A stretch of DNA of 64,000 bases from an uncultured Lentimicrobiaceae bacterium (lineage in GTDB: Bacteria > Bacteroidota > Bacteroidia > Bacteroidales > UBA4417), in the NCBI GenBank assembly GCA_964544545.1, contig CAZJCG010000001.1:38073-102072 (forward strand), read 5' to 3'. The notes beneath the pieces were generated by a model, which saw only the letters and a list, made by a program, of their open reading frames with translations, did not search any database and was not told the DNA's origin. This document shows positions 35,771 through 52,747 of the stretch, one piece after another; the stretch's first letter is position 1, and each line of letters opens with the position of its first letter. The position numbers and the translations under genes are program-made.

Positions 35771-36195
35771 GGGTCGACGGATTAAAAACATTTCAATAGG
35801 GTGATGCAAGGGTAAAACGGTTGTATCCGGTGGTGTAGCTTTGTTCGGCCAGGCCTTGTTGCCTACCCTGGCAATGAATTTACAGATCAAACCTGCCGGA
35901 TGACCGAAAAGGATTTGCCCATGATGATAGCTTTACGATCTTTGGGCATGCTTACTTTTCCCGGTTATGCAAATTCTCTGCACAAAATCAGGATATTTGT
36001 CCGGGCCTTCTCTCTTTTCAAGCAGCCTCTTAGTTGAAAACATTGAACTGAACCATCGGCATGACAGAAATCCCGTTAACTTTTGTAAACCTCAAACGGA
36101 TACCGGCGTTCTGTTAACTTTAAGGCATACTTTTCTTCCACATTGACCCATGATCCAAACCAATCCCTGAAATCCAAACAAAGCAATAAAACCCT

Positions 36196-39100
36196 ATGAA
36201 ACGTCATTCCCTAGTCAATTCCCTGTTGATCATCACAATGATCCTGGCAACCTCGTTCTTCATGGAAAGCAGGGCAACCCTTACCCACTTCCGGCCAACA
36301 ACGGGCAAGGTAACATCCGGAGATAAAACAACCGCAAAAGTGCAGGAGAAAAAAGGAAAATCCGGGACCAGAAAAAATGAAACTGCATCGGATACACTCA
36401 AATCTGCGACATTCGGCGGCCTCAAATGGAGAAGCATCGGGCCCGCCCTTACCTCCGGCCGCATTTCCGATTTTGCCGTGAACCCTGCCAACAAGAGCGA
36501 GTGGTATGTTGCGGTGGCTTCAGGGCATGTATGGAAAACCGTGAATAATGGCACCACTTTCGAACCCATTTTCGACAACTACGGGGTCTATTCGATCGGT
36601 TGCGTCACCATCGACCCGAACAATGCCAATGTTGTATGGGTTGGATCGGGCGAGAACAATCACCAGCGTGCGCTGGGATATGGCAATGGTGTCTATAAAA
36701 GTACCGATGGCGGTAAGAGTTTTTCCAACATGGGATTGAAAGAATCCAGGCAAATCGGGGCGGTGCTGATCGACCCGCGGAATTCAGACATCGTATTTGT
36801 AGCCGCCGAAGGTTCTGTCTGGGGCCCTGGCGGTGACCGCGGCCTGTATAAGACCAACGACGGAGGCAAAACATGGAAAAAGGTCCTCGGGATCAGCGAA
36901 AACACCGGCGTCAACAACGTACTGCTTGATCCCAGAAATCCCGATATTATGTATGCCTCTTCCGAACAGCGACGTCGCCATGTGTTCACCAAGATTGGTG
37001 GTGGCCCGGAAACGGCCGTTTACAAATCGGTGAATGGAGGTGAAAGCTGGGATAAACTCACCAACGGCTTGCCTTCAGTCGACATGGGCGGAATGGGACT
37101 TGCCATTTCACCTGTGAATCCCGATGTGATCTATGCCATTATCGAGGCTGCCGACGATGCAGGCGGATTTTACAGAAGCAGCGACCGGGGAGCCTCCTGG
37201 CAGAAAATGAGCAGCCATACGGCACAGGGACAATACTACAATGAAATATATTGCGATCCGAAGAATGTAGATAAGGTTTATTCCATGGAAACGGTTTCGC
37301 AGGTAACCGAAGACGGTGGCAAAACCTGGCGCGCCATCGGGAATAACAAGCGCCATGTGGACGATCACGCTTTCTGGGTCGACAAGGATGATACACGCCA
37401 TTTTATGATTGGAAGCGACGGGGGGATCTATGAGTCGTTCGACGGTGGCTCCAACTTCGTTTTCAAGTCCAACCTGCCTGTCACCCAGTTCTACAGGGTC
37501 CAGGTCGATAATTCCACTCCGTTCTATTACGTTTACGGTGGTACCCAGGATAACAACAGTCTTGGCGGACCATCGCGGAACACATCATACAGCGGGGTTG
37601 CCAATGATGAATGGTTCATCACCAATGGCGGCGACGGTTTCTGGTCGCAGATCGACCCGGAAGATCCAAACATCGTTTACGCTGAATCGCAGTATGGCGG
37701 AATGGTACGTTACGACCGTAAAAGTCAGGAAGCTATCGACATCCGCCCTGAACCGCGAAAAGGGGAAAACAGCTATCAATGGAACTGGAATACTCCCCTG
37801 TTGCTAAGCAGCCATTCACATACAAGGCTCTATTGCGCCGCTAATAAGGTATTTCGCAGCGACGACCGCGGTAACACCTGGCAGGTCATCAGCGACGACC
37901 TGACCGCCGGCATCGACCGGAATACCTGGCCTGTTATGGGAAAATACTGGCCCAGCGATGCCGTAGCCAAGGATATTTCTACTTCACTGTTCGGTACCAT
38001 CGTTTCACTGGAAGAATCTCCGCTCAGCGAAAACCTTTTGTATGCCGGGACCGACGATGGCCTCATCCGCGTCACTGACGACGGCGGCAAGAACTGGACG
38101 AAAGTGTCATCTTTCCCGGGTGTGCCTGAAAACACCTATGTCAGCGACATCCTGGCTTCGAAGTTCGATGCGGATGTCGTCTATGCCTCCTTCGATAACA
38201 TCCTCCGCGATGATTTCAAACCTTACCTTATGAAGTCGACGGACAAAGGCAAAACCTGGACTTCCATTTCGGGTAATCTGCCGGCAAACGGGACCGTACA
38301 CAGCATCCAGCAGGACTTCATCAATCCCGACCTGCTGTTTGCCGGAACCGAGTTCGGATTCTTTTTCAGCCTTGATGGCGGAAAGATCTGGGTGCAACTG
38401 AAATCGGGAATGCCGCCGATAGCCGTGCGTGATATTGCCATTCAGAAACGGGAAAGCGACCTCGTGGTTGGCACCTTCGGGCGTGGCATCTATATCCTCG
38501 ACGATTATTCACCGCTCAGGACCTTTAAAAAAGAGATCCTGGAAAAAGACGGTTACATCTTCCCGGTTAAGGATGCGCTCATGTATCTGCCTTCCGACAG
38601 CCGTTACGGTCAGGGATCCACCTATTACCAGGCTAAAAATCCCGAATTTGGCGCAGTCTTTACCTATTGCTCCAAAGAGGCGCCGAAGTCGCTGAAAGAT
38701 ATCCGCAAGGAAAAAGAGGCAGAACTGTTCAAGAAGGGTGAACCCATCCCGCAACCTACCGAGGAGGAACTGCGTGCCGAAAAGAATGAAACGGCACCTT
38801 ATCTGACCTTTCTGGTGACTGATGAATCGGGCAACAAGGTGAGGATGATCCGGAAAAATCTTTCGGCCGGAATTAACCGGGTGAACTGGGATCTCCGTTA
38901 CCAGAGCAACCATTCTGTTGAAGCCGGCGAATCGCCTGATCCGCTCAACGATCCGGGAAGCCAGGTACTGGCAATGCCGGGTAAATACAACGTCACAATC
39001 CTCCTGACCTCAAAAGGCGAAACCAGCCAGGTGGCCGGTCCTGTATCATTCAATTGTACCGTGCTCAACAACCTTAGCCTTCCGGCAACTGACCGTGCCG

Positions 39101-39573
39101 CCATGACTGCTTTCCACCGGAAAGTTTCGGATGTTACCCGTGCCGTGCAAGGAACGGAACAGTATGCTCAGGGTCTATGGAAAAGATCGAAAGACATCAT
39201 TCAGGCATTGGATGCATCTCCCGCTGCAACACCCGAATTGCTGAAAAAAGCTCAGGATATAAACATGCAACTCGACAGCCTTCTTAACCGGAAATTCAAC
39301 CGGCGATCAGAAAGACCCAGCGATGAAGAAAATCCTCCTGCTCCTGTTCCCCTTAATAACCGGTTATACAAGGTCTCCTGGGCTTGCTGGGCTTCAACGG
39401 CTACTCCGACGCAAACGCAACAGGATGCCCTGGCAATCCTCATGGAAGAATTCCCGCCCGTGTACCAGCTGATCAAACAAATAGGCGAAGTGGATATCCC
39501 TAACCTTGAAAAGGAACTGGAAAAGATCGGAGCACCTGTCACACCGGGCCGGTTGCCACAATGGAAGTTCTAG
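36196..39573 (+). CDS. sortilin/VPS10-like BNR (Asp-box) repeat beta-propeller protein
   Basis: 1125 aa with a signal peptide. At least 10 Asp-box motifs SxDxGxTW (STDGGKSF, TNDGGKTW, SVNGGESW, SSDRGASW, TEDGGKTW, SDDRGNTW, TDDGGKNW, STDKGKTW, SLDGGKIW). Confidence 0.75.
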   Translation: MKRHSLVNSLLIITMILATSFFMESRATLTHFRPTTGKVTSGDKTTAKVQEKKGKSGTRKNETASDTLKSATFGGLKWRSIGPALTSGRISDFAVNPANKSEWYVAVASGHVWKTVNNGTTFEPIFDNYGVYSIGCVTIDPNNANVVWVGSGENNHQRALGYGNGVYKSTDGGKSFSNMGLKESRQIGAVLIDPRNSDIVFVAAEGSVWGPGGDRGLYKTNDGGKTWKKVLGISENTGVNNVLLDPRNPDIMYASSEQRRRHVFTKIGGGPETAVYKSVNGGESWDKLTNGLPSVDMGGMGLAISPVNPDVIYAIIEAADDAGGFYRSSDRGASWQKMSSHTAQGQYYNEIYCDPKNVDKVYSMETVSQVTEDGGKTWRAIGNNKRHVDDHAFWVDKDDTRHFMIGSDGGIYESFDGGSNFVFKSNLPVTQFYRVQVDNSTPFYYVYGGTQDNNSLGGPSRNTSYSGVANDEWFITNGGDGFWSQIDPEDPNIVYAESQYGGMVRYDRKSQEAIDIRPEPRKGENSYQWNWNTPLLLSSHSHTRLYCAANKVFRSDDRGNTWQVISDDLTAGIDRNTWPVMGKYWPSDAVAKDISTSLFGTIVSLEESPLSENLLYAGTDDGLIRVTDDGGKNWTKVSSFPGVPENTYVSDILASKFDADVVYASFDNILRDDFKPYLMKSTDKGKTWTSISGNLPANGTVHSIQQDFINPDLLFAGTEFGFFFSLDGGKIWVQLKSGMPPIAVRDIAIQKRESDLVVGTFGRGIYILDDYSPLRTFKKEILEKDGYIFPVKDALMYLPSDSRYGQGSTYYQAKNPEFGAVFTYCSKEAPKSLKDIRKEKEAELFKKGEPIPQPTEEELRAEKNETAPYLTFLVTDESGNKVRMIRKNLSAGINRVNWDLRYQSNHSVEAGESPDPLNDPGSQVLAMPGKYNVTILLTSKGETSQVAGPVSFNCTVLNNLSLPATDRAAMTAFHRKVSDVTRAVQGTEQYAQGLWKRSKDIIQALDASPAATPELLKKAQDINMQLDSLLNRKFNRRSERPSDEENPPAPVPLNNRLYKVSWACWASTATPTQTQQDALAILMEEFPPVYQLIKQIGEVDIPNLEKELEKIGAPVTPGRLPQWKF

Positions 39574-40601: not shown

Positions 40602-41915
40602 CTAGCGGATAAACAGCTTTTCTTTCAGCGTTCTCTGGTCATTGGATACTGTAAGCATATAGATGCCGGATCTCAGTGAAAGATTCAGTATGGTGGGCTG
40701 GTTTCCTGGAACTTGTTTCAGGCAGACCGGTTTACCGGAGGCATCAACGATCTGCATTGTCACAATTCCTGTGCCCAGGCCCGGTTCAAGGGTAAAATGA
40801 CCGGAAGAGGGATTCGGATAGATGATAAGCGTATTTTTTGCAACGGGATCGCCTGTACCGGTTGTATTGATAACATTGGTCTGCTTTACCGTCGACCACT
40901 CACCATCGCCACAGGCATTGATGGCTTTTACACTTACACCGGCAATCCCTGAGAACAGCGGATTCCAGTTCACCGTTGCATTCATCCCATCGGGATTTAA
41001 AATGCCGGCATCAACAGGAGTGAGCTCCCACAGGTAGGAATCTGCATTTGTTGAACCGGAAGTACTGTATATGCTGAAGTTTTCTTCAGCCAGGTCAACA
41101 ATGGAAGGGCCTGCAGGCTCAGGCAGCTGCGCCGGAACAGATCCCACTGCAACAGCCAGATGGCTGGGTGCTCCGTTACCGGCCTGATTCGATCCAAAAA
41201 CGCTTACATTACCCGATGAAGCGTTTGAGCCAAAGCTGACGGAAACATTGGTTGTGCCCTGGCCTGACAGTATGGAAGCTCCCGCTGGTACTGTCCAGTT
41301 ATAACCGGTGGCTCCGGATATCGGGCCAACCGAATAGGAATAACTGTTCCCGGCACAGACTTCCGCGGGTCCTGAGATCGGTCCGGCGGCGCCCGGCAGG
41401 GATACCGTCTGTTCATTTACTACCAGCGTGCTTAACCTGACCGGTCCCGGCTTATTCCTTGCAAAGGCTCCGTAAAATGTTACCTGACCTGTTCCGGCCG
41501 GTGGGGCTGTCCAGGTAAACGTCCAGGAACTCACCGAGGTATTGGCGCTAACATGGGTCACATACTTGTTGTTCCCCACCAGTTGATTGTTGGCACCTGC
41601 CGTAAGGGTACCCAGAAGATCTCCTGCCACATTCTGCGGAGATACCTCAAATCCAAACTTCCCGGACCCTGTGATCTGGTTTGTCGCTGTAATCTGGTAC
41701 GATTGCCCCGGCGTGTAACCCGATGCCGGGATGTTGGAAGTAATCCATCCGGTAACGGAAGTGGGCGTACCTCCATGGCATTCGGTACAATTGCTCCCGT
41801 CACCGGGAGAACCTGTCTTGGCAGGTGGTGCGCCGGTAGGATAAAATGCGATAAAACTGCTCAGTACGAGCAGCGAGGAGATGCTGATTATCAAGGGTAA
41901 ACGTCGGACTTTCAT
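40602..41915 (-). CDS. T9SS C-terminal-sorting-domain protein with an N-terminal CxxCH-containing domain and PKD-like repeats
   Basis: ATG at 41915 gives the signal-anchor MKVRRLPLIISISSLLVLSSFIAF. GSPGDGSNCTECHGG motif. Two repeats of the type CAGNSYSYSV..ISGATGYNWTVP. C-terminal IYPNPSSGHFTLE...LFIR, typical of type A T9SS sorting domains. Confidence 0.7.
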   Translation of the reverse strand: MKVRRLPLIISISSLLVLSSFIAFYPTGAPPAKTGSPGDGSNCTECHGGTPTSVTGWITSNIPASGYTPGQSYQITATNQITGSGKFGFEVSPQNVAGDLLGTLTAGANNQLVGNNKYVTHVSANTSVSSWTFTWTAPPAGTGQVTFYGAFARNKPGPVRLSTLVVNEQTVSLPGAAGPISGPAEVCAGNSYSYSVGPISGATGYNWTVPAGASILSGQGTTNVSVSFGSNASSGNVSVFGSNQAGNGAPSHLAVAVGSVPAQLPEPAGPSIVDLAEENFSIYSTSGSTNADSYLWELTPVDAGILNPDGMNATVNWNPLFSGIAGVSVKAINACGDGEWSTVKQTNVINTTGTGDPVAKNTLIIYPNPSSGHFTLEPGLGTGIVTMQIVDASGKPVCLKQVPGNQPTILNLSLRSGIYMLTVSNDQRTLKEKLFIR

Positions 41916-42237
41916 AGGATTGGGTTTAAGGTCCAAAAGGTTAATATGGACTAAACAATTGAAGTTGGGCATCTGTTCATCAGTCGGTCAGAGCGCCTGA
42001 ATGCAGCAGAAAACTCCGGGAATTCCATAACTGCATAAGCCGGCGGAACACTATTGGGAATTTATCCTTTACCCCGCCAGGCGCCATTCGCAATCCATGT
42101 CCGGCTCTTTCGCATCCTGAATCCGTATTCCCCGGACATTTCATCCGTAGTTGCAACAGACTGTAAGGATAATGGATGATGATTGTCGGCCGCATATCAG
42201 GTTTCCGGTCCCGTAACCTTAGCAACCCTCTTTTTCC

Positions 42238-42245
42238 CTATTTTT
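42238..42245 (+). promoter_or_regulatory. candidate -7 promoter element for the sulfotransferase-flippase module
   Basis: tatttttg matches TAnnTTTG 48 nt upstream of the ATG at 42293. No clear -33 element. Confidence 0.3.
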
Positions 42246-42292
42246 GCCTGACCCTGCACACACCGTACAGGGAGTATATCCATTCATTCCCT

Positions 42293-43354
42293 ATGCCCGC
42301 CCAAACCGTCAGTCAGCAGGTAGCCAACATTCCCGTATTCTTCATCCTCGGTCGCCCGCGTTCAGGAACCACCCTGTTGCGAACCCTGTTCGACGCCCAC
42401 CCGAACGTTGCCACCCCGGTGGAATGTGCCTTTATCATCAACATGAGGCAGAAATATGCCGGTATCACACACTGGTCCAAAGAACTGCTGCTCGAGTTCC
42501 ATGAGGATGTACAGAAGCATATCAAGTTCGATACCTGGAACATTGACCTCGACAGGATGAAGGCCGATTTGCAGGATTGCGCAGGAGAGAACACTTTCCA
42601 GAACATCTGCAAGGTGGTGTATTTCGATTACATCTCCCTCTTCCCGAAAGAGGAGATCAAGTGGATCGGGGATAAGAATCCGGTATATGCCACCTATACC
42701 CCCGAACTGTTGAAGCTCTTCCCCGATTCCAAATTCATACATCTCGTCAGGGATCCAAGGGATAATATCATATCGCTCAAGAACGTCGACTTTGAGGGAC
42801 CGTTTACCGCATTGCTGGCCTATCGCTGGGTTCATTCCGCACGAAAGCTCTTCCACATCAAGAAAAAGTATCCGGGAAAGTTCTATACGATCCGTTATGA
42901 GGATCTGGTTACGGAGCCTCAGCGCTATTATCGTGAAATGTGCGATTTTCTCTCGATCCCTTACAACGATATCGTTTTCGATTTTTATAAGAAGCAGGGT
43001 GAGGCAATGCAGAAATTCAACATCGAAAAGATGATGAAGTATCACAAAAGCCTGTTCTCACCTATCAATAACTCGAAAGTAAATCTCTGGAAAACGCAGC
43101 TCCCTGACCGGGATATCAGGATCACCGAATTTGTTGCCGGCAAATGGACCCGCAAGTACGGATACGAGCGGAAATACCGTCATGCCGGATTGAAAGCTGT
43201 CGTTGTTTCAATTCCCTGGCTCATCTATGGCCGTTCCCTGTACCTTCTGCGCGATTTCATCGACCTTTTCCCGTTTAAACTGAAGATCGCCATCAAGAAC
43301 AGGGGTCCAGTCCTGGCCCGCACTTTTGTGAAACTAAGGAATCCCGACTCCTGA
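42293..43354 (+). CDS. sulfotransferase family protein (paralog 1) with a hydrophobic C-terminal tail
   Basis: PAPS 5'-phosphosulfate loop GRPRSGTT and 3'-phosphate motif HLVRDPRDNIIS. ATG at 42293 preferred over the extended ORF. C-terminal LKAVVVSIPWLIYGRSLYLL segment. Confidence 0.8.
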   Translation: MPAQTVSQQVANIPVFFILGRPRSGTTLLRTLFDAHPNVATPVECAFIINMRQKYAGITHWSKELLLEFHEDVQKHIKFDTWNIDLDRMKADLQDCAGENTFQNICKVVYFDYISLFPKEEIKWIGDKNPVYATYTPELLKLFPDSKFIHLVRDPRDNIISLKNVDFEGPFTALLAYRWVHSARKLFHIKKKYPGKFYTIRYEDLVTEPQRYYREMCDFLSIPYNDIVFDFYKKQGEAMQKFNIEKMMKYHKSLFSPINNSKVNLWKTQLPDRDIRITEFVAGKWTRKYGYERKYRHAGLKAVVVSIPWLIYGRSLYLLRDFIDLFPFKLKIAIKNRGPVLARTFVKLRNPDS

Positions 43355-43366
43355 TCATTCGAAACC

Positions 43367-44671
43367 ATGGCGCCGCGGAGTTTTCTGAAGGATATCAGCA
43401 GTGTGTTCGGCAGCAATCTGCTGGCTCTCACCAATGCTTTTCTGGTGGATGTAATCCTTTCGCGGCAACTGGGGCCTGAAGGACGCGGGTTATATATGTC
43501 CATCCTTGTGGTTCCGCTCATCGTGGTGAGTTTCGCCCTGCTAGGAATACGCCGTTCAGCCGTTTTCCATCTGGGGAAAAAGACATTCGACGAAAACAGG
43601 ACCGTTTCAGGGGTTCTCATCCTGCTGATCATCACCAGCGCACTGGCCGTTATCATCAGCGGGATTGCCCTGCTCATCACTAAACCCGAAGGCCTCACGG
43701 CACCCATGGCGATCCTTGCATTGCTCACCATCCCGGTAAAGCTGATCCTGGTTTACTCCGGAGGCATCTATATCGGGAAGGAAGAGTTCCGGCGGTCGAA
43801 CCTGCAGGTGTGGGTTCCGCAGTTCCTCAACCTCATTGGTATCATAGCCTTTGTTTGGATAGTTCGCTGGTATGTCCCCGGGGCTCTGCTGGCATTGTTA
43901 CTGGCTAACCTTGCTGTAGCCATCATATCACTGAATTACCTCAGCCGGAATTATACCATCCGGATCCGGCTCGACAGCGAAGTGATCGGAAGCCTGGCGC
44001 GTATGGGGATTGTTTACGCCCTGGCGGTCGTCATCATGCAACTGAATTACCGGGTTGATATCCTCCTGCTGCAGAAACTATCAACGCTCAAAGAAGTCGG
44101 GTACTATTCGCTGGGAGTGGCCATCAGCGATAAACTCTGGCAACTGCCATCCGCAATCGGACTGGTGGTAATGAGCCGCAGCGCCAACACCAACGACGAA
44201 TACCGGCTGAACAGGGATGTGGCCCGGCTGCTGAGATTATCATTCCTTCTGGTGCTGGCCGTCGCTGTGATCCTCTGGCTGATAATCCCATGGCTGCTGC
44301 CTCTCATTTTCGGCAGCCGTTTTACCCCCAGTGTTGCCATCGTGCAGTGGATGTTGCCGGGTATCCTGATGTTCGTGATCGTTCGCATACTCAGCGGAAG
44401 ATTTGCAGGACAGGGACAACCTTTGACACTCATCTCCATCTTCGTTCCTGCCCTGATCCTGAACATCCTCCTCAATTTCCTCTGGATCCCCTCACATGGT
44501 GGCATTGGCGCCGCCTGGGCCAGTAACGTGAGTTATACGGCAGGCGCCCTAGCCCTGCTCCTGGTCTACTCCGTCAAAATGCAAATCCCGATGTACGAGA
44601 TTGTCCGTTATCGTAAAAGCGATTTCGACTTCATCGCCAACTTCCTTAAGCGCAGGAGGAAACAGTCATGA
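43367..44671 (+). CDS. Wzx-like oligosaccharide/polysaccharide flippase (MOP superfamily)
   Basis: 434 aa and polytopic (12 or more hydrophobic segments). The N-terminal region SSVFGSNLLALTNAFLVDVILSRQLGPEGRGLY is typical of polysaccharide biosynthesis flippases. ATGA overlap with the next gene. Confidence 0.8.
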   Translation: MAPRSFLKDISSVFGSNLLALTNAFLVDVILSRQLGPEGRGLYMSILVVPLIVVSFALLGIRRSAVFHLGKKTFDENRTVSGVLILLIITSALAVIISGIALLITKPEGLTAPMAILALLTIPVKLILVYSGGIYIGKEEFRRSNLQVWVPQFLNLIGIIAFVWIVRWYVPGALLALLLANLAVAIISLNYLSRNYTIRIRLDSEVIGSLARMGIVYALAVVIMQLNYRVDILLLQKLSTLKEVGYYSLGVAISDKLWQLPSAIGLVVMSRSANTNDEYRLNRDVARLLRLSFLLVLAVAVILWLIIPWLLPLIFGSRFTPSVAIVQWMLPGILMFVIVRILSGRFAGQGQPLTLISIFVPALILNILLNFLWIPSHGGIGAAWASNVSYTAGALALLLVYSVKMQIPMYEIVRYRKSDFDFIANFLKRRRKQS

Positions 44672-45735
44672 CAGGAGAGGAGTTAAAAAGGATTGAACAA
44701 ACTCCGATGTTCTTCATCGTCGGAAGGCCCCGCACAGGCTCAACCCTTCTGCGAATGCTGTTCGATGCGCATCCCAACGTGGTCATTCCACAGGAGTGGC
44801 CGATGCTGATGGCCCTGTACCACCAGTTTGGGAATGTGAAAAAATGGGACGCCCCGACGCTCAACCGCTTCTATGATGCACTATTCCAAAAACTACGCAT
44901 CTCCTACTGGGAAATTCAAAACTGGCCGGAATTTGATGCCCGACGGCTGAAAGAATCGATCCTGGCATGCGAAGGGGAACATACCTTCGAAACGCTCTTC
45001 AAGGTAGTTTACAGCAGCTACCATTCTTATTTCGATAAAAAAGAGATCCTCCTGTTCGGAGATAAAAATCCGGTGTATTCCAATCAGGCAGATCAGCTTG
45101 CGAAGCTTTTCCCTACTGCAAAATTCATCCACCTGATCCGCGATTACCGCGACAACATTGTTTCGATGCTGGACGTGGATTTTGAAATGCCCAACACTAC
45201 ACTGCTGGCCTATCGGTGGAAGTATTCGATCGATACGATCAACCGGACGGCTGCCAGTTTCCCTGAGCGTTTTGTTACTCTCCGGTATGAAGACCTGGTT
45301 GCCGACCCTCAATCCCGCTTCGCCGAACTTTGTCATTTCCTTGAAATCCCGGAAGCCCCGTCGATTTTTGAATTTCAAGCCCGGAAAGAGGAATTGGAAG
45401 CTCATGTGCCGAAAGAACTGATAGATCGCTACTTTAAGAACCTGTTTAAACCGATCGACGCTTCCCGCGTAGGACTCTATAAAAACCGACTGAGCAGCAG
45501 GCAGATCCGCATAGCAGAACTTGTCGCCGGCAAAACTGGCAAAAATGCAGGCTATATTACGGCAAACACGCAATTCAGTCCGTTGCTGCGCCTCTGGACG
45601 TTCCCGGCAATTATATATGCAAAGTGGCTGTATTCCGTGGGTTGGCTGGTCTCCCTACTGCCTTACAGATGGATGATGTGGCTGTTGAATAAGCCTTCAG
45701 TGCTGGTGAAGATGTATACGAAACTGAAGAGGTAA
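44668..45735 (+). CDS. sulfotransferase family protein (paralog 2) with a hydrophobic C-terminal tail
   Basis: GRPRTGST and HLIRDYRDNIVS motifs. Alignable to paralog 1 through FFI[LV]GRPR, GDKNPVY, KFIHL, LLAYRW and RYEDLV. C-terminal LWTFPAIIYAKWLYSVGWLVSLL. Confidence 0.8.
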   Translation: MTGEELKRIEQTPMFFIVGRPRTGSTLLRMLFDAHPNVVIPQEWPMLMALYHQFGNVKKWDAPTLNRFYDALFQKLRISYWEIQNWPEFDARRLKESILACEGEHTFETLFKVVYSSYHSYFDKKEILLFGDKNPVYSNQADQLAKLFPTAKFIHLIRDYRDNIVSMLDVDFEMPNTTLLAYRWKYSIDTINRTAASFPERFVTLRYEDLVADPQSRFAELCHFLEIPEAPSIFEFQARKEELEAHVPKELIDRYFKNLFKPIDASRVGLYKNRLSSRQIRIAELVAGKTGKNAGYITANTQFSPLLRLWTFPAIIYAKWLYSVGWLVSLLPYRWMMWLLNKPSVLVKMYTKLKR

Positions 45736-45875
45736 AAATTCCTGACCGTTCTGTGAGTAAATCCCAATCAATTCCCGGTCACTAAACGGATTCGCATTCG
45801 TATACGTGCCAAACAGAAAAGCACTCCTGCTATGCTGCGCAGCAGTAAATACCGGTAATGCAATAAGTGTAGGAT

Positions 45876-46310
45876 TTACCTCAGGATTGTGAAACTCGTC
45901 TCAACAACCGTGTTGCCTTTGATCATGGCCCAAACGGGACAGTACTTATCTTCTGCAAGGGCGATAACCTTCCGGACATCTTCATCCGAAGCATCCTGTG
46001 ATGTGAGGCTTATGTCAAGATGAATGGATTCAAATCCGGTCGGGTGTTCTTCTTTTCTGAATCCTTTAGCCTGAATCTCAAAATGGGTGATCGTTTTGTT
46101 CATTCTCCGGAGAAATGTCAGCATTGCGCTGCCCAGACAGGAGGATAGGCTCAGAAGCAGCAATTCAAGGGAAGTATATCCCTGATCGTCGCCAAGCGGG
46201 GCAATGTAATCGATTGAAACAGGCTCATTATTGTCGACGGAGCCAATGAAATGGAGTTTATCGTTAACCAGCTTAAGGGAAGCGTGTAACTCTTTCGACT
46301 TGTCAATCAT
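45876..46310 (-). CDS. OsmC family peroxiredoxin-like protein
   Basis: 144 aa, with the two conserved Cys regions (LSSCLGS and KYCPVWA) typical of OsmC/Ohr. Confidence 0.85.
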   Translation of the reverse strand: MIDKSKELHASLKLVNDKLHFIGSVDNNEPVSIDYIAPLGDDQGYTSLELLLLSLSSCLGSAMLTFLRRMNKTITHFEIQAKGFRKEEHPTGFESIHLDISLTSQDASDEDVRKVIALAEDKYCPVWAMIKGNTVVETSFTILR

Positions 46311-46481
46311 AATCTGGAAATTAAGAGGTTAGAGAAATTCTTATACTGACTTGATTATTTTGTTACGCCGCAAGACTTTGATCAGATGGCATGAGTTTTC
46401 TGTTCACGACAATCTTTCCGGTACAAATCTACCGGTAATAATGGTTACAACGATTACTATCCGACACGTTCCGATTTACAA

Positions 46482-47366
46482 TTAATTATTCCGGATGACC
46501 GCCTTATCTGAATAGATGGTCTTATTCTCCTTTGACAATGCTACCATGGTATCGAACAATTCCTGAGAGTGTGCAACAAAGAAACGATTCCCTCTGATTC
46601 TGAAGTTTTCACAAACAGACTTGTTCACATATTTATTCATGAAAGCTGTTATGTCATTATTCTTTATCTGCGGATGCGCTACCAGCGTTTTGACAATTTT
46701 TACGGAACCGTCCGGCATTTTCACTTTTGCATCATATACCTTATCTAACCTCGTTTTTATCGGGAACTTGCTTTTCAGGACATCTTCCGGGCAATGAACA
46801 AAAGAAATGAAGTTGGTATCTACGCCAATCCCGATTATTATTCCCTTATACTTCATTATTTTATAATAGGGACTTGATTCATCGCAGGGATATATGGATT
46901 CCCCGTGCCCGCCGACAATATCACCGGCATTTCGTCCGATGGCCACAATCGAATTGATCGGATGTATACTTCTTACTGCAGTGGGATATCTTCTGGCAAT
47001 TTCTGAAAGCAGGCCTAACACCGAAGGTGATCGCTTTACATCAAAAACAAGGTCTTTCGCAAGATAATCCTCTGCCCTGGATGTGATATGCCAGGCAGGA
47101 AACACCAATGTACCGCTATCTCCGACACTTTCGAGCAGGATTTCGAACAACCGGTAAACAGAAAACTGAATGTTTAAAGCATCTATGGAGCTATGAATAA
47201 ATAATACAGATCCTTCGCGAACCCCTATCCGGTCGTGGAGAATGTCCCTGAAATCCTGTTCTGATAATGGCTTGTATATCTTTTTTAAAATCCGCCTGTA
47301 CACTGTTCTTAATGAAATGAAAACGTCGACAGGCAGAATCTGGAAGATTAATTTTTTTATCCCCAT
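46482..47366 (-). CDS. AAC(3)-family N-acyltransferase-like protein
   Basis: SVLFIHSSIDAL....LLESVGDSGTLVFPAW matches the N-terminal signature of aminoglycoside 3-N-acetyltransferase-fold proteins. Last gene of a tightly packed five-gene operon. Confidence 0.6.
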   Translation of the reverse strand: MGIKKLIFQILPVDVFISLRTVYRRILKKIYKPLSEQDFRDILHDRIGVREGSVLFIHSSIDALNIQFSVYRLFEILLESVGDSGTLVFPAWHITSRAEDYLAKDLVFDVKRSPSVLGLLSEIARRYPTAVRSIHPINSIVAIGRNAGDIVGGHGESIYPCDESSPYYKIMKYKGIIIGIGVDTNFISFVHCPEDVLKSKFPIKTRLDKVYDAKVKMPDGSVKIVKTLVAHPQIKNNDITAFMNKYVNKSVCENFRIRGNRFFVAHSQELFDTMVALSKENKTIYSDKAVIRNN

Positions 47367-47367
47367 A

Positions 47368-48417
47368 TCACTCTATTTGCATTTCCTGAGCTAGTTTACT
47401 GAAGGTAGTGAATTCAGCTTCCGGATATTTTTGACGAACTCTTTTCACAAACGACTCCATCAAGCTGAATGAATAATCACCCATACTTTTGGGATGCCCG
47501 CTTATGCTGAATATGGCTGTTTCCTGGTTTATGTACTTCCTGACATTATAGTCCAGGTTCTTCATCAGATAATCTATTGAAAGCGTATAGTTATCAAATG
47601 ATAGCATGCGGGACGAAAACATCATTTTAATTTTGGATTTCAGATCTGTCGGATTGCCTTCGTGAATCTGATATCCGTGATCCCTGGGGCCTTGTGCCGC
47701 CAGTTTCTTTAATTTAAACCGCGTCGGGACTTCAAACGGTGTTTTGGGAATACTTGCAATGGGCACCTCAAGGATTCCCTTCTCTGCTTCTTTTCGGATA
47801 TCTCCGTCCGGACCAATAAACCAGTTTGGCTTTGGCGGCATGTTGAGACAATTAATTTCCGAAAGCCCCGAACGGAAATAATATCCTTTAATGATCGAGC
47901 TGTCAAAACGGATCCCATACCTGTAAAGCGAGGAGAATATTGCTTCAGCGGCATCTTCAATATTATATCCTCCGGCACGGAATGCCAGGCACCGGTAATT
48001 ATGATCTGCAACAGCACAGACTTCATACAAAAAATCGACTCCGGCCTTGATTATTCCATCGATCGTAAAAGGCTTCCCGGTTGAAAAATCCGCCAGACGA
48101 TAATCCTTTGAAGGAACAAAGGTGCTGTCGTTGTAAGAGGATGTCAGCCAATGGGGATGTAAATGCAACTGTACGTCATGATGGCTTCCGGCAGCATCCT
48201 GTAATTGCCTGACATAGGGTTCATAAAATGAACTTTTATCCCATTCTTTAAAACGGATGCCACAGAGCACATCCGTAAATAATACTACAGGCAATTCAAG
48301 TTTTTCAGCCAGATCCAACAATCTGTATGTCGGATCAAACATGGCCTCCTGATACGAAGTCCGGACACCACCTAAAGGCAGTTCATGATCAAATGTCAGT
48401 AATATTTTAAGCTTCAT
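47368..48417 (-). CDS. polysaccharide deacetylase-like / hypothetical hydrolase
   Basis: N-terminal KILLTFDHE plus later His-rich motifs (HHDVQLHLHPHW) resemble metal-dependent carbohydrate esterase/deacetylase-superfamily proteins. The assignment is tentative. Confidence 0.4.
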   Translation of the reverse strand: MKLKILLTFDHELPLGGVRTSYQEAMFDPTYRLLDLAEKLELPVVLFTDVLCGIRFKEWDKSSFYEPYVRQLQDAAGSHHDVQLHLHPHWLTSSYNDSTFVPSKDYRLADFSTGKPFTIDGIIKAGVDFLYEVCAVADHNYRCLAFRAGGYNIEDAAEAIFSSLYRYGIRFDSSIIKGYYFRSGLSEINCLNMPPKPNWFIGPDGDIRKEAEKGILEVPIASIPKTPFEVPTRFKLKKLAAQGPRDHGYQIHEGNPTDLKSKIKMMFSSRMLSFDNYTLSIDYLMKNLDYNVRKYINQETAIFSISGHPKSMGDYSFSLMESFVKRVRQKYPEAEFTTFSKLAQEMQIE

Positions 48418-48665
48418 TACAGAGTGGTGTCGTTGGTTTTCTTTTCAACCAGGCTGATCATATCGCCCACCGTAGCAATGCCTGCAAGATCTTTAAATCC
48501 AAATTCAATTGAAAAATGGCTTTCAATGGCGGCGATCAGCCTGACATGATTTAATGAATCCCATCCTTCTACTGTCAGGGGAGAATCAGAGGACTTAAGT
48601 TTAAGATTAGGTCGTTCAAGAGTATCAGCAAAAATTCTGTTTATCTCAGATAAAATATTTTCCAT
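48417..48665 (-). CDS. acyl/aminoacyl carrier protein
   Basis: About 82 aa with the phosphopantetheine attachment motif GWDSLNHVRLI. ATG at 48665 preferred over TTG at 48671. Confidence 0.8.
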   Translation of the reverse strand: MENILSEINRIFADTLERPNLKLKSSDSPLTVEGWDSLNHVRLIAAIESHFSIEFGFKDLAGIATVGDMISLVEKKTNDTTL

Positions 48666-48667
48666 GT

Positions 48668-49333
48668 TCAAGCTATTGATTTCTGCATTTTGATCCGGGT
48701 TAAGCCCGGCAGGTATTTCAGAACTTCAGTGTTTTCAGTGGACCTTTCCTCAACAATTGTAAATCCGAGTTTTGTCTGACTTAAAACAGCAGCCTGATTT
48801 TGTTTAAAAAGCTGCACCTGAGCTTTGCTGATGGCCGGATATTTCATTTTTGCCGAGCTGATAAGGGCATCCGTTAATAAACCCACAATACCTCTCCCCC
48901 TGTATCCTTCCCTTACATAGGTGGTTTCCAGTTGAAGGGTCATGTGGTCCCTTTTTATGCCGACTTCATCCACTACCGAAGCTATCGAGTGATAATGTTC
49001 AATTTGCCTTTTGTCAAGGAATGCCTTGAAGGCACTCATTTTTAACAACCCCGACGGCATACCTCCGATTCCTTCAATCCACCCGGTATATGCAGCAACA
49101 GGATTTCCGCCAAGTTCGGCAATTTTAAAATTTCTAAAACTAAACTCAAAATCAGGAATATCTTCTTTGAATATTTTTCTCATCAGCGAAGCAAACTCAT
49201 TTTCCGTGATGTCAAATATGGCGCAATAGCTTACAATATTCCCATTCCCCTTTTCAGCATTTATGATTGCTTCAATAAGGAAATCTGAATCCTTTACGGT
49301 TGCATCCCTGATTACAAATTCACTGGTCATCAT
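48668..49333 (-). CDS. GNAT family acyltransferase
   Basis: Acyl-CoA-binding-type motif REGYRGRGIVGLL. About 221 aa. ATG at 49333. Confidence 0.7.
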   Translation of the reverse strand: MMTSEFVIRDATVKDSDFLIEAIINAEKGNGNIVSYCAIFDITENEFASLMRKIFKEDIPDFEFSFRNFKIAELGGNPVAAYTGWIEGIGGMPSGLLKMSAFKAFLDKRQIEHYHSIASVVDEVGIKRDHMTLQLETTYVREGYRGRGIVGLLTDALISSAKMKYPAISKAQVQLFKQNQAAVLSQTKLGFTIVEERSTENTEVLKYLPGLTRIKMQKSIA

Positions 49334-49339
49334 TTTCAA

Positions 49340-50857
49340 CTAAAGCATTTGCTTATCCATAGCCAACAAGGCCTTCCTGTCAATTTTCCCGTTGAGATTG
49401 TACGGCAGGCTATCTATAAAAATAAATCGTTTCGGAAGCATATATTCAGGAATTCTGGCCCTGAGCAGTTCTGTGATAACAGGTCCCTCATAATGAACTT
49501 CTGCAACCAGAAACAACAGTATCTGCAGCTCTTCTGATTCCCCGGTTGCAACGGCAACAGCATCTTTGATCCCGGCAATCCGGTTGGCAGCATCTTCTAT
49601 TTCGCCGAGTTCAATTCGGTAGCCACTGATTTTAACCTGTGTATCATTTCTCCCTAAATAGAAATAGTCGCGCTCCTGATCGACCAAACAGATATCGCCG
49701 GTACGGTAAAAAGTTGATTTGTTGTAATTGATGAATGATTGCTTATTCCGGTTCTCATCATTCAGGTAACCCGAAGTCAACTGCCTGCCCTGAATGCAAA
49801 GCTCTCCTTCCGGATTATTGTCGATGGTTAACTTATCATCACGCATCAATGCAAAGCCGGTCCCAAGGAAGGGTTTCCCTATACAAACCACTCCGTTAAC
49901 ATCTTTAATATCACTTTTCGGACAACGGTAATATGAACAGAAGATCGTTGCTTCGGTTGGTCCGTAAACGTTAAGTATGTCAGCATTTGGCACACATTGC
50001 TGCCAGTTGCTCACCAGTTTGGTCCGTAAGGCTTCACCACAAAACAACCAGTACCGCACATCGGGGAGCCGGATCTTTTTAAAATAAGGTTCCAGATAAC
50101 TGACAAAAGAGGGAACGGTGAGTGTATGCGTTATGGCCTTCTCTTCAATTACGCTTATGGCAGCTGTAAATTTAAACGGGACCCGTGGTAAGGTGTAAAC
50201 ACATGCACCTTTCAGCAACGGGATAAGATAGGAAAATACCGAAAGATCGAAAGTGAGATCGAATACCTGGAGGAACCGGTCTTCCTGATCAATCCTGATA
50301 CCCATCCGATCGATATTCTGGACAAACGCCTGCAGATTCTCTGTAGTGATAGGCACACCCTTAGGAACCCCGGTTGTGCCTGAGGTAAATAGAATATATG
50401 CCGGATTATCGGTTAATCCGACAACAGCATCTGTTGTTAACTCCTTTTCAACCGGATCGGCAAGTAGCTTGTCACCATGTTTCTCTAAAAATTCCCGGTG
50501 CAGCATACCGGCATCCGAACAATAGATTGAACCTAAGCTTAATGCATTGATAATATGACTGTTCCGTTCGTCCGGGTGGGATGGCTCAATAGGAATGTAA
50601 GTGATACCGCTAAGTAAACAGGCAACAATAGCTGAATATGTATCAAAATCGTTGTTGGCAATTATTCCCAATGATTCAATCCTGGTGTTTTGATTCCGGA
50701 ATAAGGACTGGAACAGGGCCACCCGCTTAAGCAGCTGATCATAGGTAAAGCAGGCATCATTAATACAGAATGCATTCCTGTGAGCATGGGTTTTTAAGGA
50801 ATTAAGTAAATCCTGCTGTAATACTCCTTTCCCCTCAGAAATGCTTTTACTGACCAT
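49340..50857 (-). CDS. DltA-like stand-alone adenylation enzyme (ANL superfamily)
   Basis: Adenylation core motifs FTSGTTGVPKG, FDLSV, NVYGPTEAT, YRTGD, GRNDTQVKISGYRIELGEIE, NGKIDRK. The 505-aa size and motif spacing match D-alanine-carrier-protein-ligase-type enzymes. Confidence 0.85.
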   Translation of the reverse strand: MVSKSISEGKGVLQQDLLNSLKTHAHRNAFCINDACFTYDQLLKRVALFQSLFRNQNTRIESLGIIANNDFDTYSAIVACLLSGITYIPIEPSHPDERNSHIINALSLGSIYCSDAGMLHREFLEKHGDKLLADPVEKELTTDAVVGLTDNPAYILFTSGTTGVPKGVPITTENLQAFVQNIDRMGIRIDQEDRFLQVFDLTFDLSVFSYLIPLLKGACVYTLPRVPFKFTAAISVIEEKAITHTLTVPSFVSYLEPYFKKIRLPDVRYWLFCGEALRTKLVSNWQQCVPNADILNVYGPTEATIFCSYYRCPKSDIKDVNGVVCIGKPFLGTGFALMRDDKLTIDNNPEGELCIQGRQLTSGYLNDENRNKQSFINYNKSTFYRTGDICLVDQERDYFYLGRNDTQVKISGYRIELGEIEDAANRIAGIKDAVAVATGESEELQILLFLVAEVHYEGPVITELLRARIPEYMLPKRFIFIDSLPYNLNGKIDRKALLAMDKQML

Positions 50858-51211
50858 CTATAACTAATGGATAAAAATGCCTTTGGGATTGACCCGGGCG
50901 TTTAAATATTGACATTGTAAAATTAAGACAATTTATACAGCATCTTCATGATACTGCACCAAAGGACTGAAGGCATTAAGTACAGCTTCGGAAGGAGCCG
51001 TTGGTCCGGAGCGCCTTCGTTCATTTAAATGTTGTTGCCTTATATTTCCTCCGGGTCTCAATTGTTTGATATTTATAAATCACTGTGAAAAGGCACGTAT
51101 GCCATCAGGCAGGGCTTCACAAAGAAACCAACAGGATCAAAGAAGAAAGGTATTGAACCAGCTTATGAAAGCCTCTGAATATTGGACGCAATGTGATTGT
51201 AGCATATCTGA

Positions 51212-51919
51212 CTACTTTCCCATGGCTTTCTTTTTCAGATCGCCCGGCATCTTTTCGATTGCGTACCGCAATGCCGTCCGTGGCATGATGGATTTATGCT
51301 GCATTACATATTCAAATATCCTTTCTTGGTTCGCTTCAGCGGCAGCCTTTAACATCCATCCGTATCCTTTTTGCACAAGATCATCTTTGTCCAACAGTAA
51401 GATATCAGTAATTTCTAAAATGTCATCCAGGAATTTGCCTTTCCGCGCCGGTATGATCAACGTAACGGCAGATGCCCTGCGAACCCATCTGTTTTCCGAT
51501 GTTGCGAAGGCTTTCAGTTTTGAAACAGCATCGGGATACATCTCGATAAACGTCCCTACTGAATGGTTGCACAGCGTATCACACGATGCCCAGTTGTTCA
51601 CATAACTGTTGATCCATTTTTCAAACAACAGAAAATCACCGGGTTCATACTGCTGATGTATGGCATAGGACCAGTTGCAGGCAATAAACGACTCCTCCAG
51701 GTATCCGGACTGCCATAGCGTTTCACATAAGTCAAATACTTCTGTTCTGGATTTAAAATCAATACGACTAAAAATATCTTTACCGATCCTGTTTACTGTC
51801 GGAACTTTAACGCCATAGAATCTGATCTTCTCTTTGAAAAAATGCTGACTGGTCTGCAGAGTCTTTTCATCAATGTTGTTACTGAGTTCATTTCTGACTT
51901 GTTCGATGATATTCTTCAT
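51212..51919 (-). CDS. DNA alkylation repair protein (AlkD-like HEAT-repeat family)
   Basis: 235 aa, all-helical. The N-terminal pattern (KTLQTSQHFFKEKIRFYGVKVPTVNRIGKD) and WVRRASAV segment are typical of the DNA alkylation repair enzyme family. Confidence 0.75.
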   Translation of the reverse strand: MKNIIEQVRNELSNNIDEKTLQTSQHFFKEKIRFYGVKVPTVNRIGKDIFSRIDFKSRTEVFDLCETLWQSGYLEESFIACNWSYAIHQQYEPGDFLLFEKWINSYVNNWASCDTLCNHSVGTFIEMYPDAVSKLKAFATSENRWVRRASAVTLIIPARKGKFLDDILEITDILLLDKDDLVQKGYGWMLKAAAEANQERIFEYVMQHKSIMPRTALRYAIEKMPGDLKKKAMGK

Positions 51920-52145
51920 GATTAGTTCGGTTTTTTTTGACGGCTTGTATGCCTGAGTGAACGGTCCCTGCCTTGGTGCCGGAACAAAGCCCTGGCAGCT
52001 AAGCCCATCTTATGTCCGATGGATACTACTTTGTCTTTTAAAAGTGTTGATTATTAGATATTAATCTTGCGCAATTATTGACAGTTAATATGTCAATCCT
52101 GAATTCATCAAAAATCAAATAAACTATTCTATAATTTCCCCGTAC

Positions 52146-52248
52146 TATACTGAATCTTAACAGGTTTGCGAAGCAGAGCTGTTTAGATTCAGTTATGCTG
52201 AGCATGTCCCCCAAATAAATTTATGCAAACCTGTTCAGCCGCAGTATA
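52146..52248. mobile_element. MITE/REPIN-like inverted-repeat element, copy 2 (103 bp)
   Basis: Terminal inverted repeats tatactgaatcttaacaggtttg (52146-52168) and caaacctgttcagccgcagtata (52226-52248) match at 19 of 23 positions. Its right end supplies the last 4 codons and the stop of the truncated toxin ORF. Confidence 0.65.
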
Positions 52249-52438
52249 ATTGTCTTATTTTCTGATTGTTGAATTCAGGAACAATAGATCCGGATTGGGG
52301 GAATTCCTCCAAAATATCAACTGATTCAAATAGTTCGGTAACAGTAATTTCAGCATATCTGATCGAATCTTTAGCAATGTATTCACCTATTGCATCAAGA
52401 TCAAGAATTGCAGAATCAGTCCAGACTACTTTAACCAT
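52235..52438 (-). pseudogene. 3'-truncated RelE/ParE-family toxin gene
   Basis: MVKVVWTDSAILDLDAIGEYIAKDS...FPQSGSIVPEFNNQKIRQ matches the N-terminal two thirds of ParE/RelE toxins. The reading frame then runs into the repeat element (LYCG-stop). The C-terminal beta-strands of about 30 aa are missing. Confidence 0.65.
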
Positions 52439-52608: not shown

Positions 52609-52666
52609 TACAAATGTATTTTGATAAAGTTACAAAATAATAGCTCATCATTCAAGTATGGAATAT

Positions 52667-52747
52667 TATACTGAGCAAGTCCCGAAAAACAAATTTCGAC
52701 CCGAAGGGTCCCTCCGAAGGAGAGCAAACCTGTTCAGCCGGAGTATT
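52667..52747. mobile_element. MITE/REPIN-like element, partial copy 3 (right half)
   Basis: tatactgagcaagtcccgaaaaacaaatttcg matches the interior of copy 1. cgacccgaagggtccctccgaaggagag is the inverted counterpart of the copy-1 inner arm. Ends with caaacctgttcagccggagtat. Confidence 0.5.

Follow-up and report, generated by a model that had tools for sequence, protein, structure and literature searches.

A Conserved Sulfotransferase-Wzx Flippase Cassette of Bacteroidales and Its Predicted Role in Making a Sulfated Envelope Glycoconjugate

Introduction

Why should a bacterium place two sulfotransferase genes on either side of the gene for a membrane flippase? This arrangement is found in a stretch of 64,000 nucleotides from an uncultured Lentimicrobiaceae bacterium (assembly GCA_964544545.1, contig CAZJCG010000001.1, a metagenome contig of 302 kb, positions 38,073 to 102,072 of the forward strand), referred to below as the window. 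The first sulfotransferase (ST1) is followed by a Wzx-type flippase and a second sulfotransferase (ST2). A preliminary description of this DNA proposed that both enzymes are anchored in the membrane by their C-terminal tails, and that they sulfate a lipid-linked oligosaccharide at two positions on the cytoplasmic face just before it is flipped. We have followed up this proposal by profile searches, structure prediction and comparison with related loci. We find that the pairing of sulfotransferase (ST) and Wzx is widely conserved, and we consider it somewhat better than an even chance (roughly 55%) that ST1, Wzx and ST2 form the core of a conserved envelope-glycoconjugate pathway, in which a lipid-linked sugar is sulfated in the cytoplasm and exported by Wzx.

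Results

The cassette comprises the following features.

42293-43354, + strand: ST1, a sulfotransferase of the type using 3'-phosphoadenosine 5'-phosphosulfate (PAPS), 353 aa (from Pfam and the starts of relatives); catalytic core at residues ~1-292, conserved basic/aromatic C-terminal extension at ~293-353
43367-44671, + strand: Wzx-type flippase (PST family, MOP superfamily), 434 aa (from Pfam and Kyte-Doolittle segments)
44668-45735, + strand: ST2, a paralogous PAPS-type sulfotransferase with an ST1-type tail, 355 aa (from Pfam and identity to ST1)
42239-42246, + strand: putative -7 promoter element of Bacteroidota type, TATTTTTG, lying 47 nt before ST1 begins (sequence match)

The three open reading frames (ORFs) are present in the sequence as first described, and form a single unit on the + strand. 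The stop codon of ST1 is separated by 12 nt from the Wzx ATG at 43367, and the Wzx stop overlaps the ST2 start in an ATGA at 44668-44671. The preliminary description took the whole unit to be translationally coupled. The overlap suggests such coupling between Wzx and ST2, but it does not extend to ST1 and Wzx, where the genes do not overlap.

The start of ST1 was placed at 42293 because this ATG aligns with the starts in relatives and because a conserved -7-type element lies upstream of it, inside a longer ORF. That longer ORF, from 42176, was rejected as ST1; the relatives whose starts line up with the ATG at 42293 are the two closest, L005 and L006. The CCCTATTTTTGC block is also found upstream of ST1 in these two loci, with the match to TATTTTTG conserved. 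We take TAnnTTTG to be the Bacteroidota -7 consensus, which the element at 42239-42246 fits, making it a putative promoter element. A scan for sigma-70 promoters and terminators gave counts the same as in shuffled sequences, and was not used.

Is the association of the STs with Wzx maintained elsewhere? Relatives were found by a pattern scan with one genome taken per species, and 293 such species-level genomes encode an ST relative. The counts of loci given here refer to the best 80 of these, whose ORFs were scored with hidden Markov models (HMMs) of the ST family and of the window flippase. Nearly all are metagenome-assembled genomes (MAGs) of uncultured Bacteroidales, Lentimicrobiaceae or Lentimicrobium, with identities ranging from 83% down to ~41%; the isolate labels of many suggest wastewater, digester or sediment samples. 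A Wzx homologue is encoded on the same strand in 67 of the 80 loci, with an ST directly adjacent in 54. The Wzx stop overlaps the start of the downstream ST in 36 of 46 cases, the overlap being 4 nt (17 cases), 13 nt (11), 16 nt (5) or another length (3). The window ST2 belongs to a clade of 12 members, every one of which is encoded immediately downstream of Wzx. The modules contain from one to four STs, arranged as ST-Wzx-ST, ST-x-x-Wzx-ST, ST...ST...Wzx, three or four tandem STs followed by Wzx, or simply Wzx-ST.

The family is large. A search of 1.8 billion cluster representatives with the ST profile gave 1,511 matches at E ≤ 1e-30, and the top matches mostly extend through the tail. One of them, P0199 (770 aa), is an in-frame fusion of Wzx to a tailed ST, 37% identical to the window flippase. 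It lends weak support, since it is a singleton on one contig and may be a frameshift at the usual overlap. In two further proteins of ~700 aa, P0121 and P0271, one tailed ST is fused to another. A different, high-GC lineage has a protein of 1,298 aa (P0122) in which four STs without tails are joined in tandem.

The pairing of ST with Wzx is not due to chance, and the association first noted in this one locus is borne out. The view that the genes are neighbors by accident and the tails irrelevant is effectively refuted by the comparative data, i.e., by adjacency in 54 of 67 loci, by the frequency of overlaps, by the invariable position of the ST2 clade after Wzx, and by the span of the family, whose members go down to ~41% identity.

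Both flanking proteins are assigned as sulfotransferases by Pfam. Against Sulfotransfer_3 (PF13469; cutoff 27 bits) ST1 scores 122.5 bits (E = 4e-35) and ST2 113.8 bits (E = 2e-32), and both also pass the Sulfotransfer_1 cutoff. They are 40% identical to each other over 348 residues (E = 4e-92), tails included, so that their paralogy extends over the full length. The 5'-phosphosulfate-binding (5'-PSB) loops GRPRSGTT and GRPRTGST, and the 3'-phosphate-binding (3'-PB) motifs RDPRDNIIS and RDYRDNIVS, are present in ST1 and ST2 respectively, as had been noted. Residues R23, E44, K128, R153 and S161 of ST1 are invariant in family alignments of 18 and 59 members. In the phmmer alignment with the tyrosylprotein sulfotransferases (TPSTs), E44 falls on the Glu of the GEE motif and K128 on the Lys of the NKDP motif. 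We take R23 to correspond to the arginine of the 5'-PSB loop in TPST, E44 and K128 to its catalytic glutamate and lysine, and R153 and S161 to the arginine and serine of its 3'-PB motif.

The predicted fold agrees with this assignment. An AlphaFold2 model of ST1, calculated with the alignment of 59 sequences, has a pLDDT of 89.9 and a pTM of 0.88, and the top Foldseek matches are TPST1/2, the CurM ST and mycobacterial Stf9, with probability 1.00, giving the sulfotransferase alpha/beta fold. Neither ST has a signal peptide, and the P-loop begins at residue 20. Both must therefore be located in the cytoplasm and act before flipping, in keeping with the sulfation on the cytoplasmic face that was first suggested. 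Thus ST1 and ST2 are, to judge from their sequences, cytoplasmic PAPS-type sulfotransferases with cofactor-binding and catalytic residues intact.

The solved structures nearest to ST1 in sequence are TPST1/2, the CurM ST and the olefin-synthase ST (E ~1e-17 to 1e-13, phmmer). The cassette enzymes resemble these in having a fold of Sulfotransfer_3 type, both cofactor-binding loops (5'-PSB and 3'-PB), and the Glu and Lys of the catalytic site. The acceptor of TPST is a peptide tyrosine, and that of the CurM ST is a beta-hydroxyacyl-ACP (acyl carrier protein). We considered these matches as a clue to the substrate and rejected them, as ~20% identity reflects the shared cofactor-binding core only.

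Could the cassette enzymes nevertheless sulfate tyrosine, acting in the manner of TPST or RaxST on a secreted peptide or protein, with the proximity of Wzx incidental? TPSTs are the top matches in both sequence and fold. Yet the identity of ST1 to TPST and to the CurM ST is just ~20-23%, and what they have in common is the generic set of PAPS-binding and catalytic residues. Moreover, a precursor peptide, a peptidase-containing ABC exporter and a RaxST-type partner are not present, while the overlap with the gene of a lipid-linked-glycan flippase and the presence of sugar genes argue for a glycolipid substrate. We regard tyrosine sulfation as hardly credible.

Alignment of ST1 with solved sulfotransferases stops at residue 292, and the extension beyond this point is specific to the family. 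It is lacking in TPST and in the CurM ST; TPST is anchored by an N-terminal transmembrane (TM) segment. The preliminary description saw a C-terminal hydrophobic or amphipathic segment of about 40 aa. The segment is real and conserved, but it is longer than this, ~55-60 aa, with a median of 62 aa across 129 family members. These tails are strongly basic (median net charge +10, minimum +5; +8 to +10 for those in the window), with an aromatic content of 16%. P327 is invariant, and Y312, Y317 and D324 are each retained in at least 90% of family tails. Helices are predicted at 300-323, 328-337 and 340-349 in the AlphaFold2 model of ST1.

Are the tails membrane anchors? The maximum hydropathy (KD19) is 1.22 for ST1 and 1.28 for ST2 (family median 1.28) compared with a TM threshold of 1.6, a value reached in 29 of the 129 family tails and not in the other 100. 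A crude sum of insertion energies has minima of +7.3 kcal/mol for ST1 and +5.5 kcal/mol for ST2, compared with -3.9 and -3.1 kcal/mol for the best segments of Wzx and of a glycosyltransferase described below (GT2); by this measure none of the 129 tails falls below zero. The STs are not strictly tail-anchored as had been proposed, because their tails lie below the thresholds of both transmembrane hydrophobicity and insertion. We infer from the composition that this basic, aromatic, proline-punctuated helical tail could associate with an anionic membrane in an interfacial or monotopic manner.

The protein encoded between the STs passes the Pfam cutoffs for Polysacc_synt_3 (45.8 bits, cutoff 23; E = 6e-12), Polysacc_synt (44.4 bits, cutoff 28.2; E = 2e-11) and MurJ (33.3 bits, cutoff 27.4; E = 3e-8). 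It has at least ten Kyte-Doolittle hydrophobic segments, several long enough for two helices, which we counted as the polytopic topology of ~12 TM helices of the Wzx/PST family. The only characterized relative is WzxE, to which the full-length similarity is weak, both in NCBIfam (E = 6e-5, 22.5 bits against a cutoff of 325) and in the PDB (9g95, E = 0.013). By profile the middle gene thus encodes a PST/Wzx-type MOP flippase; its transported substrate is a prediction.

This assignment brings in the possibility of a classical Wzx/Wzy pathway, in which an oligosaccharide on undecaprenyl diphosphate (Und-PP), made by glycosyltransferases (GTs) encoded elsewhere, would be sulfated by the STs, flipped, and polymerized into a capsule, exopolysaccharide (EPS) or O-antigen. 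Und-PP-oligosaccharides are the normal cargo of Wzx-type flippases, and WzxE is the sole relative, albeit weak, in the PDB and NCBIfam. STs are known inside Wzx/Wzy clusters, in that for synechan (PMC8205485) and in an Actinoplanes cluster, and a putative O-antigen cluster of Vibrio, which lacks Wzy, has an ST close to wzx. Against this, a Wzy polymerase, a PCP/Wzz chain-length regulator, Wza, an initiating phosphoglycosyltransferase or an array of GTs does not recur within 10 kb of the cassette in the 80 loci, nor does any export protein or further GT family, although singleton GTs are possible. The 64-kb window similarly has no Wzy, PCP/Wzz, initiating phosphoglycosyltransferase or set of several GTs. 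The only GT that recurs near the cassette is a GtrB/ArnC-type polyprenyl-monophosphate monosaccharide synthase, and the locus is conserved in the manner of a core-genome locus, unlike the variable loci for capsules. The oligosaccharide of the preliminary description is thus not upheld, and a Wzx/Wzy pathway seems to us unlikely.

If not an oligosaccharide, what is the substrate? All neighbors of the cassette over the 80 loci were clustered to define a set of recurrent partners. The window contains the following members, together with an insert.

54335-55012, - strand: GNAT N-acyltransferase, weakly PseH-like (cluster c5; Pfam Acetyltransf_3, 1e-5)
55009-55932, - strand: GT2, a GtrB/ArnC-type polyprenyl-phosphate glycosyltransferase (cluster c7; from structure matches)
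56233-56967, - strand: short-chain dehydrogenase/reductase (SDR), FabG-like ketoreductase (cluster c6; Pfam adh_short_C2, 2e-46; 33 of 80 loci)
56989-58044, - strand: beta-ketoacyl-ACP synthase III (KASIII), FabH-like condensing enzyme (cluster c4; Pfam ACP_syn_III and ACP_syn_III_C; 32 of 80 loci)
58348-59796 and 59817-61208, + strand: two B12-binding radical-SAM enzymes (cluster c2; Pfam B12-binding and Radical_SAM)
61266-62393, + strand: Acyl_transf_3 integral-membrane O-acyltransferase (cluster c58; Pfam 1.4e-27; eight Kyte-Doolittle segments)
45736-54334, no strand: low-GC insert of ~8.6 kb (GC 0.35-0.43 compared with ~0.50), not part of the conserved system

The relatives point to an amino-sugar. 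A WecE-type dTDP-4-amino-4,6-dideoxyhexose transaminase (543.9 bits compared with an NCBIfam equivalog cutoff of 375) is found in 47 of the 80 loci, divergently upstream of ST1, and the closest relatives are among them. The GNAT enzyme, which matches NCBIfam PseH below cutoff (8e-10), has homologues in 33 loci; its gene directly follows the ST/Wzx cassette in close relatives, and directly follows ST2 in L005 and L006. GT2 has full-length matches to the solved structures of GtrB sll0501 (5EKP, 3e-47) and ArnC (9hwj, 1e-41), and matches NCBIfam ArnC (7e-50) and PgfS (9e-35) below the equivalog cutoffs. Two TM segments lie at its C terminus (228-256 and 258-287), as in GtrB and ArnC. Of the 42 loci that span 17 kb or more, Wzx is encoded in 88%, GT2 in 52%, and one or more of the aminotransferase, GNAT and GT2 in 88%. 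In L005 and L006 GT2 lies within ~1 kb of ST2, compared with 8.6 kb in the window, where the insert splits ST2 from the GNAT-GT2-SDR-KASIII block. That block abuts ST2 in L005 and L006, and the insert is absent there. A bulk Pfam scan of 127 other neighbors found housekeeping genes and no recurrent Wzy, phosphoglycosyltransferase or GT family; the flanking genes include Suf, UvrC, ThiL and peptidases.

Other partners look like enzymes of lipid metabolism. The KASIII matches the NCBIfam beta-ketoacyl-ACP synthase III model at 3.5e-67. Relatives recurrently have one to three B12-radical-SAM enzymes per locus (49 genes in 26 loci), the best NCBIfam matches being HpnJ and BchE, far below the cutoffs. 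In L069 and L079 as many as three radical-SAM paralogues directly precede Wzx-ST. The O-acyltransferase has the same position in L005 and L006. Also recurrent in relatives is a trio comprising a DltB-like MBOAT protein, an unannotated partner and a fatty acyl-AMP ligase (FAAL) fused to a carrier domain (together clusters c8, c9 and c10), encoded between or beside the STs and Wzx in L019, L021-L024 and others. The trio looks, from its domains, like a Dlt-like system moving a fatty acyl group, not D-alanine, across the membrane. It is absent from the window, where tblastn gave no match to MBOAT, to c8 or to c19, and FAAL was only weakly similar to an adenylation enzyme of the insert. The unannotated MBOAT partner is a protein of 325 aa with one N-terminal hydrophobic segment. 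Comparison of c8 with solved structures gave no match, and hence no ground for assigning it as DltD-like.

On such evidence the cassette might instead serve a sulfolipid pathway, the STs acting on a 3-hydroxyacyl chain made by KASIII and SDR or on the head-group of an acylated glycolipid, with the MOP protein exporting the amphiphile. The CurM ST (6.7e-17) and olefin-synthase ST (2.7e-13), both enzymes of beta-hydroxyacyl-ACP, match ST1 as well as TPST does. The surroundings are rich in lipid enzymes, i.e., KASIII, SDR, FAAL-ACP, the DltB-like MBOAT, the B12-radical-SAMs and Acyl_transf_3, and the B12-radical-SAMs weakly match families acting on lipids and hopanoids. The logic would be like that of the mycobacterial sulfolipid-1 locus (Stf0, FadD23/Pks2, PapA1/2, MmpL8), where an ST is encoded with a fatty acyl-AMP ligase, acyltransferases and an exporter, leading to a sulfated glycolipid. 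However, that system differs from the cassette in its ST family, its RND/MmpL transporter, its use of trehalose, and its lack of a polyprenyl carrier. Recurring alongside the lipid enzymes are a WecE equivalog, a GNAT resembling sugar N-acyltransferases and a polyprenyl-phosphate glycosyltransferase, the transporter is of PST/Wzx and not MmpL or ABC type, and a polyketide synthase, thioesterase or other olefin-forming partner is not present. We consider a sulfolipid pathway improbable.

Two relatives provide a link to the cofactor. An APS (adenosine 5'-phosphosulfate) kinase (CysC; PF01583, 1.5e-62) is encoded inside the ST/Wzx operon of L058, in the order ST-ST-CysC-ST-Wzx (CysC at 2156-2761), and of L066, in the order Wzx-ST-CysC (CysC at 2814-3218). 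Of the genomic evidence for use of PAPS by the family this is the most direct, and it would be indirect evidence for sulfuryl transfer. The L066 CysC looks truncated or frameshifted, at 134 aa with an ORF of 61 aa just upstream.

Discussion

We propose the following for the function of the cassette. A sugar linked to polyprenyl phosphate would be assembled on the inner leaflet of the cytoplasmic membrane, GT2 being its likely maker. The sugar is likely to be a 4-amino-4,6-dideoxyhexose, N-acylated by the GNAT enzyme with an acyl unit provided by KASIII and SDR. ST1 and ST2 would use PAPS to sulfate the lipid-linked intermediate at different hydroxyls; sulfation at two positions is plausible. 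The basic, aromatic C-terminal extensions would hold both enzymes at the membrane surface, and the dedicated MOP/Wzx flippase, co-translated with them, would export this lipid-linked product once sulfated, to be passed on to an acceptor in the envelope. For the identity of that acceptor, the regiochemistry, the membrane association of the tails and the final destination of the product, we infer what is set out here. A fully specified version, in which a sulfated N-acylated 4-amino-4,6-dideoxyhexose donor on polyprenyl phosphate is used in the periplasm to modify lipopolysaccharide or lipid A, the glycan of a glycoprotein, or a glycolipid, is put forward tentatively, and with more doubt than the general scheme.

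The order of the partners, i.e., aminotransferase, N-acyltransferase, polyprenyl-phosphate GT and flippase, matches the three-component logic of the Arn and Gtr systems. That a flippase of the MOP superfamily can export a polyprenyl-phosphate monosaccharide is seen in the undP-pentofuranose system, where it belongs to the MATE family (Kelly et al.; PMC11127046). In logic the cassette with its recurrent partners resembles that system, GtrA/B/C and ArnB-ArnA-ArnC-ArnE/F-ArnT, the GT being of GtrB/ArnC type and the flippase a candidate for export of the donor. The cassette differs in that its flippase is of PST/Wzx type, not GtrA/SMR or MATE, and in that a GT-C enzyme was not found near the cassette. 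We know of no member of the three-component systems that sulfates its lipid-linked donor.

The closest analogy for sulfation before flipping is archaeal. In Halobacterium salinarum, VNG1056C and VNG1057C sulfate a dolichyl-phosphate-linked N-glycan at different positions, and the flippase Agl29 translocates it (PMC11980604). As proposed for the cassette, two STs act on a substrate linked to a polyprenyl (dolichyl) phosphate and there is a dedicated flippase, and one of the Halobacterium STs is membrane-associated. Unlike the cassette, the glycan is a tetrasaccharide made by four GTs and is N-linked to protein via AglB, the membrane-associated ST has an N-terminal TM segment rather than a C-terminal basic extension, and the ST genes do not overlap that of the flippase.

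Among bacteria, the synechan (xss) cluster of Synechocystis PCC 6803 encodes two STs (xssA and xssE) with Wzx, Wzy and PCP (PMC8205485), and other clusters for sulfated EPS or capsular polysaccharide were also compared (PMC11641403, PMC13390465). They have in common with the cassette that PAPS-type STs are encoded with Wzx and that sulfation of a lipid-linked unit in the cytoplasm is presumed. But in these clusters there are, besides, Wzy, PCP and as many as eight GTs, or else an ABC/Kps exporter; nothing of this kind is found near the cassette, where the only GT is GtrB/ArnC-like. Further, the xss STs belong to different subfamilies, for which a conserved tail is not reported.

A number of observations weigh against our proposal. 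The known flippases of undecaprenyl-phosphate (Und-P) monosaccharides are mostly small GtrA/SMR proteins, not of Wzx type. In the window, the block containing GT2 is 8.6 kb away from ST2, on the opposite strand and behind the insert. The WecE-type aminotransferase was not found anywhere in the 64-kb window by tblastn; at the position that it occupies in relatives there are only 320 nt between ST1 and the upstream gene of the type IX secretion system (T9SS), which ends at 41972. Because the GT2 block is displaced and the aminotransferase absent here, the proposed sugar pathway rests largely on the relatives. There is no candidate in the window for a transferase of GT-C fold, which would be expected as the third component to use the flipped donor, the unannotated ORFs having at most three TM segments, though it may be encoded elsewhere; c19, a TM protein with tetratricopeptide repeats (TPRs) found in 7 loci, gave matches to solved TPR structures only and none to GT-C. 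ATP sulfurylase, APS kinase and PAP phosphatase are likewise not encoded in the window, as the preliminary description had noted for PAPS synthesis. The acceptor cannot be read from homology because identity to any characterized enzyme is ~20%, and at that level the similarity to TPST and the CurM ST gives no substrate information. A single 4-acylamido-6-deoxyhexose does not easily account for those loci that have three or four STs. Lastly, the ST1 model is confident at the tail helix 300-323 (pLDDT ~90, with a high pTM), and the tail may thus pack on the catalytic domain instead of on the membrane.

How much of this is new? Bacterial surface glycans seldom carry sulfate esters, and in the literature searched none is described from Bacteroidota. 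The statement in the preliminary description that carbohydrate sulfation in bacteria is known from rhizobial, mycobacterial and cyanobacterial systems only no longer holds, given Vibrio and Cobetia capsules, Pontiella exopolymers, the Actinoplanes cluster and the Halobacterium N-glycan. The idea of an ST working with Wzx is itself not new: cyanobacteria, Vibrio, Cobetia, Actinoplanes and Pontiella all provide cases, either described or predicted. In the literature searched we found no link between Lentimicrobium and sulfotransferases, and no bacterial pathway in which GtrB/ArnC-type enzymes are combined with sulfation. On the same basis three aspects appear to be new: a large Bacteroidales ST subfamily with a conserved basic/aromatic C-terminal extension; its coupling to one Wzx family, often through overlapping genes and with one to four paralogues per module; and an ST-Wzx locus of Arn/Gtr rather than Wzy type.

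Were the fully specified version correct, the product would be an anionic, sulfated counterpart of the cationic 4-amino-4-deoxy-L-arabinose (Ara4N) modification made by Arn, and one that Lentimicrobiaceae-like Bacteroidales conserve as a core trait. Confirmation of the product would mean that an abundant anaerobic lineage has a sulfated envelope component among its core features, and this could be the first bacterial sulfation of a polyprenyl-phosphate sugar donor. The STs would then constitute a new subfamily acting on carbohydrate or lipid with an extension for the membrane surface; there is a demand for enzymes of this kind in the synthesis of sulfated glycans. The cassette gives testable predictions for a cultured relative, e.g., Lentimicrobium saccharophilum, if the cassette is carried there.

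Other Features of the Window

The insert between ST2 and the GNAT gene encodes OsmC, an AAC(3)-like N-acyltransferase (46482-47366), an ACP (48417-48671), a GNAT-like protein, an unannotated protein of 349 aa, a DltA-like amino-acid adenylation enzyme (49340-50857), a DNA-alkylation repair protein, a ParE-like toxin pair and a T9SS cargo protein. The DltA-like, ACP, GNAT-like, 349-aa and AAC(3)-like genes could make up a module of their own, for decorating an amino-sugar with aminoacyl or acyl groups.

Immediately upstream of the cassette are genes for a Sortilin/BNR-repeat protein of 1,125 aa (36196-39573) and a PKD/Reeler-domain T9SS cargo protein (40602-41972). The Sortilin-like protein (cluster c15) is also encoded upstream of the cassette in several relatives. 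Further upstream, a full-length bacterial serpin (34523-35890; Pfam Serpin, 1e-111) adjoins an ECF sigma factor and putative anti-sigma factor pair (32456-34373). An RND efflux operon (HlyD-like, AcrB-like and OEP; 20722-26462) and an MlaE/MlaF-like ABC pair (7982-9477) are ordinary in appearance.

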